DNA from: Escherichia coli
Lineage (GTDB): Bacteria; Pseudomonadota; Gammaproteobacteria; Enterobacterales; Enterobacteriaceae
Length of the DNA stretch: 64,000 nt
Reading direction: 5' to 3' (one strand)
NCBI RefSeq assembly: GCF_030013205.1
Contig: NZ_CP122648.1
Part shown: piece after piece, positions 59,412-59,659 of the stretch
How the letters are laid out: each line of letters opens with the position of its first letter
How positions within the stretch are numbered: position 1 is the first letter of the stretch
Position numbers and translations under genes: made by a program
The notes under the pieces: generated by a model
Told to the model about the DNA's origin: nothing
What the model saw: only the letters and a program-made list of their open reading frames with translations
The model's database searches: none

Positions 59412-59659
59412 GCAAAGAAAAAAGGCGACAGATTACTCTGTCGCCTTTTTTCCTGACTCATAACCCTTAACGGGTCTTACAATCCTTGCAGGCCGCCAAC
59501 ACACCCTGTTTTTCCATTAGCCGGAACAATCCGTGTTGATTCCATTTCCGTTTAATTACGTCTCCGGACGTTTGTCTTCCTGACAATCCTCTGTCTTCGC
59601 CTCCTGGCGCTCCTGACCCTCATCCTGAGTCATTGTTCCTGTTAGCGTCCTCGCTCTAT
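59412..59659 (-). ncRNA. csrC: CsrC small RNA (CsrA-sequestering)
   Basis: Minus-strand sequence reads ATAGAGCGAGGACGCTAACAGGAACAATGACTCAGGATGAGGGTCAGGAGCGCCAGGAGG... with about a dozen GGA motifs, ending in the hairpin GGCGACAG-AGTAAT-CTGTCGCC plus U-run; located between yihI and yihA. Confidence 0.85.

Follow-up and report, generated by a model that had tools for sequence, protein, structure and literature searches.

What is encoded around positions 59412 to 59659 of a 64,000-nucleotide segment of an Escherichia coli chromosome (the window, in what follows), where a track of open reading frames names no gene, and is whatever is encoded there still whole? An earlier note on this DNA, made by reading the letters alone, had proposed that the small RNA gene csrC lies there and that a second one, spf, which encodes Spot 42, lies close by, both of them intact. 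Our answer is that the interval is the intact E. coli csrC, with an intact spf 1.1 kb away, both being ordinary copies in their usual chromosomal position, and we would put the probability of this reading at roughly 98%. The identity of the two RNAs can be stated this firmly because the Rfam scores, the identity to K-12, the conserved gene order, the intact upstream elements and a near-universal presence in E. coli all agree. That said, these are long-known genes in a known place, and there is nothing new in their being here. CsrC and Spot 42 are textbook regulators of carbon metabolism in E. coli, and what the window has are the standard copies.

Results

The locus and its neighbours

Reading along the window, hemN occupies 57277..58656 on the minus strand (NCBIfam equivalog), followed by yihI at 58839..59351 on the minus strand, yihA at 59930..60562 on the plus strand and polA at 60944..63730 on the minus strand, the polA stop codon ending at 60944; the last three genes are named by NCBIfam equivalogs as well as by the RefSeq annotation. 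The csrC gene lies between yihA and yihI and is transcribed towards yihI, in agreement with the K-12 annotation, and spf starts at 60796, downstream of polA and on the same strand, 1.1 kb from csrC. In the K-12 MG1655 record, the same stretch reads polA, spf (an ncRNA of 111 nt), spfP, yihA, csrC (an ncRNA of 246 nt) and yihI. In other words, the minus-strand placement of both small RNA genes in the yihI-yihA-polA intergenic regions, as originally proposed, is borne out by neighbours that both NCBIfam and RefSeq confirm. It is equally correct that the two genes are absent from the track of open reading frames: within either gene, the RNA strand is free of open reading frames of at least 40 amino acids, although Spot 42 does hold spfP, which has 15 codons. 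As a track built on open reading frames shows neither small RNA gene, and as automatic RefSeq/PGAP annotation mislabels csrC and usually omits spf, it takes covariance-model scans to annotate this part of the chromosome correctly.

Between yihA and spf, the window also contains REP-like hairpins with 7-nt arms, namely GCCGGAT...ATCCGGC at about 60585..60605 and GCCTGAT...ATCAGGC at about 60639..60663, and three differences from K-12, at 60626, 60650 and 60651, fall between or within these hairpins. An inverted-repeat search with a minimum arm length above 7 nt, and hence above that of the REP-like arms, reported nothing in this interval.

Identity and extent of csrC

The whole 64-kb window was scanned against 4,227 Rfam families at their gathering thresholds. 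The CsrC model (RF00084) is matched in full (positions 1-255 of 255) by 59406..59659 on the minus strand, scoring 277.9 bits where the gathering score is 61 (E 1.2e-87), and the Spot_42 model (RF00021) is likewise matched in full (1-115 of 115) by 60688..60806, also on the minus strand, at 122.8 bits for a threshold of 80 (E 3.6e-24). A search with the Rfam covariance models for these two RNAs was exactly the check that the earlier note had suggested, and both come out at full length and far above their thresholds. Following the limits of the K-12 annotation (b4457), we assign to csrC the interval 59414..59659 on the minus strand, corresponding to an RNA of 246 nt, with the Rfam match reaching further, to 59406. 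The 5' end at 59659 is the annotated 5' end of K-12 csrC, and 245 of the 246 bases are identical to those of csrC in the K-12 MG1655 record. The claim that CsrC is intact is thus upheld by a full-length RF00084 match and by all bases but one. Of the extent initially given for it, 59412..59659, the 5' end stands and the 3' end does not, as the K-12 annotation ends at 59414, 2 nt short of 59412, a position which is nevertheless inside the Rfam match.

Could this GGA-rich RNA actually be CsrB, or some other member of the CsrB/Rsm clan? Indeed, CsrB and CsrC are placed in one Rfam clan (CL00106), and they have the architecture of GGA-bearing hairpins and the mode of action in common (PMC7652899). 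However, when the members of CL00106 were made to compete, such that only the best-scoring family was retained, it was CsrC that was kept, over its full length. Moreover, the near-complete identity to K-12 csrC (245/246), the location between yihA and yihI, which is the csrC position, and a size of about 246 nt with 14 GGA motifs, as opposed to the 22 GGA motifs reported for E. coli CsrB (PMC7652899), all point the same way, and we attach a practically negligible probability to any clan member other than CsrC.

A rather different reading is implied by RefSeq itself, where PGAP places a pseudogene at 59467..59633 on the minus strand, as if the interval were the remnant of a decayed protein-coding gene. 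What speaks for such a remnant is the consistency of the label, as nearly all the RefSeq E. coli records examined have a PGAP pseudogene at csrC. Yet the feature bears the description "hypothetical protein; frameshifted; internal stop", on a strand whose csrC portion, as said above, is without any open reading frame of 40 amino acids or longer, and it has to be set against a full-length match to the CsrC model at 277.9 bits and against the curated K-12 record, which calls the same bases an ncRNA, csrC. What is more, the conservation over csrC tracks the GGA motifs, the stems with their compensatory changes and the terminator, and not codon positions. A decayed protein-coding gene is, for these reasons, hardly credible here, and the PGAP pseudogene, which lies over an intact csrC, appears to be an artefact of annotation that goes back to a spurious database protein. 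As a side remark on the databases, in the RefSeq/PGAP records examined the csrC ncRNA feature is absent, and spf is mostly unannotated or represented by the spfP CDS only; among the records examined, it is only the curated K-12 record that labels both csrC and spf as ncRNA. The missing csrC ncRNA feature and the pseudogene label are probably a systematic artefact of annotation.

GGA motifs, fold and terminator of CsrC

The estimate of about a dozen GGA motifs in CsrC proved right, the exact count being 14 on the RNA strand versus 2 on the opposite strand. These motifs, counted directly in the sequence, are candidate CsrA-binding sites and span 59453..59652 on the minus strand, the first G of each being at 59650, 59639, 59625, 59613, 59604, 59589, 59580, 59565, 59549, 59543, 59532, 59515, 59485 and 59453. 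For comparison, stretches of 254 nt taken over the 64 kb on both strands contain 3.1 GGA motifs on average (sd 1.9, maximum 14), and the csrC locus is the maximum of the minus strand. Mononucleotide-shuffled versions of CsrC still contain a mean of 7.5 motifs (sd 2.2), so a part of the excess, although not all of it, is due to the G/A-rich composition of the RNA. When the motifs are placed on the Rfam consensus structure, 6 fall into hairpin loops, 5 into single-stranded linkers and 3 into partly paired segments, such that 11 of the 14 are unpaired; location in loops and linkers is the arrangement reported for CsrA-binding sites (PMC7652899).

The predicted fold of CsrC has a minimum free energy of -87.7 kcal/mol, with z = -7.0 relative to shuffled sequences. 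At its 3' end, a terminator scan finds the intrinsic terminator that had been claimed for this RNA, located at 59415..59454 on the minus strand and consisting of an 18-bp stem, a 4-nt loop and a U-rich tail; among 15 sequences, the stem is nearly invariant, and one of its pairs shows a compensatory change. How well is the overall structure supported by comparison with relatives? On an independent MAFFT alignment, RNAalifold recovered the CsrC structure only in part, and therefore the Rfam structure was projected onto the alignment and its pairs were counted. In this projection, 89.5% of the cells are paired, versus 39-47% if the pairing partners are slid, and 6 pairs are changed on both sides. 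We consider this covariation support for CsrC to be real but modest, given that the sequences are close relatives and that the structure comes from a family model which includes such sequences. Across enterobacterial genera, the mean column identity of CsrC is 82%, and the number of GGA motifs remains between 13 and 15 in the orthologues of seven other genera.

The region upstream of csrC

Zere et al. mapped the 18-nt sequence TGTGAGACATTGCCGATA as the UvrY-binding site of E. coli csrC using ChIP-exo and footprinting (PMC4682653), and the window contains an exact match to this published inverted repeat for UvrY (SirA) at 59810..59827 on the minus strand, which is -168 to -151 relative to +1. 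A TGTAAG half-site follows 16 nt further upstream, at 59844..59849 on the minus strand, and the core of the UvrY site, TGTnnGAnAT, is invariant across 8 genera. Closer to the gene, a candidate core promoter can be read at 59667..59694 on the minus strand, with a -35 element TTGTTT at 59689..59694, a 16-nt spacer, a -10 element TAAAGT at 59667..59672 and 7 nt to the +1 A at 59659. Within it, GTAAAGT and the TTGT of the -35 element are invariant in 13 sequences from 8 genera, and it is such conservation, together with a reading of the sequence, that suggests that 59667..59694 is the csrC promoter. A scan of 59300..61000 with the strict sigma-70 consensus returned no promoter, and the candidate csrC promoter was missed by it because its -35 element fits the consensus at only 3 of 6 positions. 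The -35 elements of both csrC and spf are weak or unclear, as expected of promoters that depend on activators or on UP elements.

A CRP-like match with 2 mismatches is also found upstream of csrC, at 59765..59780, centred at -113.5. Outside E. coli this match is not retained, in keeping with a published remark on the poor conservation of the csrC CRP site in Salmonella.

Spot 42 and the spfP reading frame

The spf gene, encoding the 109-nt Spot 42 RNA, lies at 60688..60796 on the minus strand, as given by Rfam and by an exact match to K-12 b3864. The 109-nt sequence named in the earlier note is, to the base, the first 109 nt of K-12 spf, and the 111-nt K-12 annotation corresponds to 60686..60796 on the minus strand, with 111 of 111 bases identical. 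In the predicted fold (z = -5.1 versus shuffles), a stem-loop at the 5' end is followed by a single-stranded stretch that corresponds to the pairing region, then by a small hairpin and finally by an 11-bp terminator with its U6 tail, the kind of 3' end known from Hfq-type sRNAs. The intrinsic terminator itself, found by the terminator scan as well as in the predicted fold, is at 60695..60720 on the minus strand, its 11-bp stem having 8 G-C pairs and being followed by UUUUUUA; in Superficieibacter, this stem carries a compensatory change from A-U to G-C. Over the 8 genera compared, the body of Spot 42 is essentially invariant.

Inside Spot 42, at 60731..60778 on the minus strand, lies spfP, an open reading frame of 15 codons, MFYLSDLLLHVIGFG, all 48 of whose bases are as in K-12 b4837. 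It is laid out as a GAGG Shine-Dalgarno sequence, AUG, 15 codons in all, and UGA, and its codons are invariant in 11 of 11 aligned sequences (8 genera). In K-12, Aoyama et al. showed by experiment that SpfP is translated and that it binds CRP (PMC8916003). By analogy with that study, Spot 42 in the strain of the window would be a dual-function RNA and not a purely non-coding one, with SpfP presumably translated. The earlier note did not mention spfP, and the reading frame is an addition to its finding rather than a contradiction of it. Because it contains the spfP frame, which is translated in K-12, Spot 42 is best labelled as a dual-function RNA.

Before spf, we read a putative -10 element, TAAAGT, at 60804..60809 on the minus strand, separated by 7 nt from the +1 G at 60796; the region, TA[A/G]AGT, is invariant in 13 sequences, and no clear -35 element accompanies it. 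Further upstream, centred at -84.5, is a candidate CRP site, TGTGA-N6-TTAGA, at 60873..60888 on the minus strand, which deviates from the CRP consensus at 2 positions. Neither half-site varies among 13 sequences representing 8 genera, and it should be noted that matches to the CRP consensus with up to 2 mismatches occur over the whole window at the chance rate (25 observed versus 25.4 expected).

Differences from K-12 and their likely consequences

Within csrC, the sole difference from K-12 is at 59516 on the minus strand, i.e. at RNA position 144, where the window has U and K-12 has A. The change turns AAGGA into AUGGA, thereby keeping the GGA, and it is located directly 5' of this conserved motif. 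We counted the alleles at this position using 51-mers with the SNP at their centre, so that it lies within any 28-base megablast seed: U is found in 2,792 and A in 2,629 of the 5,426 complete E. coli genomes, a ratio of about 51:48. In other genera, A, U, G and C are all seen at this position, and the adjoining GGA is kept. Judging from these sequences, A144U is a common polymorphism and probably neutral. Two further differences lie in the upstream regions, namely at csrC -87 (59746), where the window has T and K-12 has G, and at spf -40 (60836), where the window has A and K-12 has G. The former allele is present in 1,124 genomes, and the stretch around it is not conserved between genera; the latter is also found in Pluralibacter.

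Would our conclusion be different if these substitutions had left one or both genes recognizable but silent or altered? All three differences from K-12 (G to A at spf -40, G to T at csrC -87, and A144U in CsrC) certainly exist, and for A144U in particular the concern has a basis, as a GGA starts right after position 144 and the bases flanking this motif affect the affinity for CsrA (consensuses A(N)GGA and RUACARGGAUGU; PMC7652899). On the other hand, 144U is the majority allele in E. coli and the site tolerates all four bases elsewhere, the csrC -87 allele is shared by more than a thousand genomes and falls in a non-conserved stretch, and the spf -40 allele recurs in another genus. In addition, none of the differences touches the conserved promoter blocks, the UvrY site or either of the -10 hexamers. 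It is therefore very unlikely that either gene is silent or altered, and we continue to regard both as intact, ordinary copies.

Distribution among E. coli and other genera

If the two genes are ordinary components of the chromosome, how widely are they found? Of 5,426 complete E. coli genomes, 5,425 contain the 1.7-kb region that holds spf and csrC, and spf alone and csrC alone are each found in 5,424, nearly always at 99% identity or above. A set of swine ETEC and O139-type strains is 100% identical to the window over the locus, and the query is matched without a difference along its entire length by at least 14 E. coli records. In the same collection of E. coli genomes, two records labelled as plasmids carry the whole spf-csrC region, and about 64 genomes have a second, partial match to csrC but not to spf.

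Beyond E. coli, a 16-mer of CsrC, AGCGCCAGGAGGCGAA, was used as a pattern in a scan of species-representative genomes (a 298-Gb collection), which gave at least 120 loci, mostly chance matches in GC-rich genomes. Among the matches listed, 15 loci are enterobacterial, and the others were set aside. These 15 loci belong to Citrobacter, Enterobacter, Superficieibacter, Kosakonia, Pluralibacter, Pseudescherichia, Pseudocitrobacter and E. coli, and every one of them (15/15) has a full-length CsrC, scoring 140-275 bits. Spot 42 is present on the same strand as CsrC, at 122-125 bits, in all 12 of the listed loci with enough flanking sequence. The order polA-spf-yihA-csrC-yihI-hemN is found in the window and, among the matches listed, in seven other enterobacterial genera.

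The loci set aside include 8 from Pseudomonas, 1 from Vibrio and 2 from Billgrantia that carry AGCGCCAGGAGGCGAA; these did not look like mere chance matches and were considered as possible Rsm/Csr RNAs, and Rfam found no such family at them. The 8 Pseudomonas genomes with the exact 16-mer among the matches listed are more than chance would lead one to expect for a single genus, and in Pseudomonas the 16-mer probably lies within a conserved coding sequence.

Other RNA matches in the window

Several other RNA families were matched elsewhere in the window. Rfam reports STnc490 with 146.4 bits at 46636..46759 on the plus strand, corresponding to the structured leader of an IS200C transposase gene whose reading frame ends at 47227; the IS200C element, 46636..47227 on the plus strand, lies within the sulfoquinovose (yih) gene cluster, with ompL on one side and yihN on the other. 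A match to the ES222 sRNA, with 133 bits at 52521..52628 on the minus strand, lies directly upstream of typA/bipA (CDS at about 50617..52440, minus strand), and it probably represents the typA leader region. A SECIS_3 match (84.3 bits, 20767..20825, plus strand) covers the in-frame UGA at 20770..20772 of a formate dehydrogenase alpha-subunit gene at 20185..23235, which PGAP names fdnG, yet its neighbours fdoH, fdoI and fdhE are those of the fdoG position. Finally, naRNA4, a REP-type nucleoid-associated RNA, is matched at 1649..1726 on the plus strand, between cpxA and yiiM.

Discussion

In what way would the two RNAs act in a cell carrying this chromosome? CsrC would be an untranslated RNA of about 245 nt with GGA motifs in short hairpin loops and single-stranded linkers, and each GGA would bind one RNA-binding face of a CsrA dimer. 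Along with CsrB, it would in this manner bind several CsrA dimers, which would titrate CsrA off its mRNA targets and relieve the control that CsrA exerts. Its transcription would be activated by phosphorylated UvrY on the inverted repeat some 160 bp upstream and would end at the strong intrinsic terminator. Spot 42, for its part, would be a 109-nt, Hfq-dependent RNA made in the presence of glucose, given that its promoter would be repressed by cAMP-CRP, and it would pair with mRNAs for the use of secondary carbon sources, while also being translated into SpfP, a peptide of 15 residues that would bind CRP.

This scheme follows what has been published on other strains. Namely, in K-12, CsrC binds and antagonises CsrA, and its turnover requires both CsrD and RNase E (PMC7652899). 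BarA-UvrY activates the synthesis of CsrC, and cAMP-CRP, in competition with UvrY, represses it (PMC7652899, PMC4682653, PMC7591399). Likewise, spf is repressed by cAMP-CRP, and Spot 42 targets the mRNAs of secondary carbon-source use (PMC8916003). As for the strain of the window, its expression of the two RNAs, their binding of CsrA and Hfq, their regulation by UvrY and CRP and the translation of SpfP are what one would expect by analogy with the K-12 and Salmonella experiments.

Are the two genes neighbours by accident? In Salmonella, the levels of CsrC are raised by Spot 42 (PMC7591399), meaning that these neighbouring genes are connected in function and not just linked, and it has been published that CRP acts on the promoters of both csrC and spf and that UvrY/SirA crosslinks near both. 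One could go a step further and speculate that the linkage polA-spf-yihA-csrC-yihI is itself functional, forming a co-regulated module of catabolite control, or else that A144U makes one site differ in its affinity for CsrA from one E. coli lineage to another. The conserved gene order and the allele counts can be cited in favour of such ideas, which we nonetheless consider unlikely.

Comparison with known systems

The closest relatives of the present genes are naturally those of K-12 itself. The CsrC of K-12 (b4457, RF00084), for which the reference is Weilbacher et al. 2003 as cited in PMC7652899, and that of the window are alike in their locus (yihA-csrC-yihI), strand relationship, 5' end and terminator, and they have the 14 GGA motifs and the upstream UvrY inverted repeat in common. 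They are one base apart (A144U), the window having the majority E. coli allele. Similarly, Spot 42/spf and spfP of K-12 (b3864, b4837, RF00021) are identical to those of the window in gene, open reading frame, terminator and position downstream of polA; there is no difference within the spf gene, and one promoter base (-40) differs.

At a greater distance stand CsrB (RF00018) and RsmX/Y/Z (CL00106), which, like CsrC, use multiple GGA hairpins to sequester CsrA/RsmA and are, also like csrC, activated by BarA-UvrY/GacS-GacA through an upstream inverted repeat. Unlike CsrC, however, CsrB is longer, has 22 GGA motifs in E. coli and is encoded at a different locus, and its expression needs IHF, which is not the case for csrC (PMC4682653).
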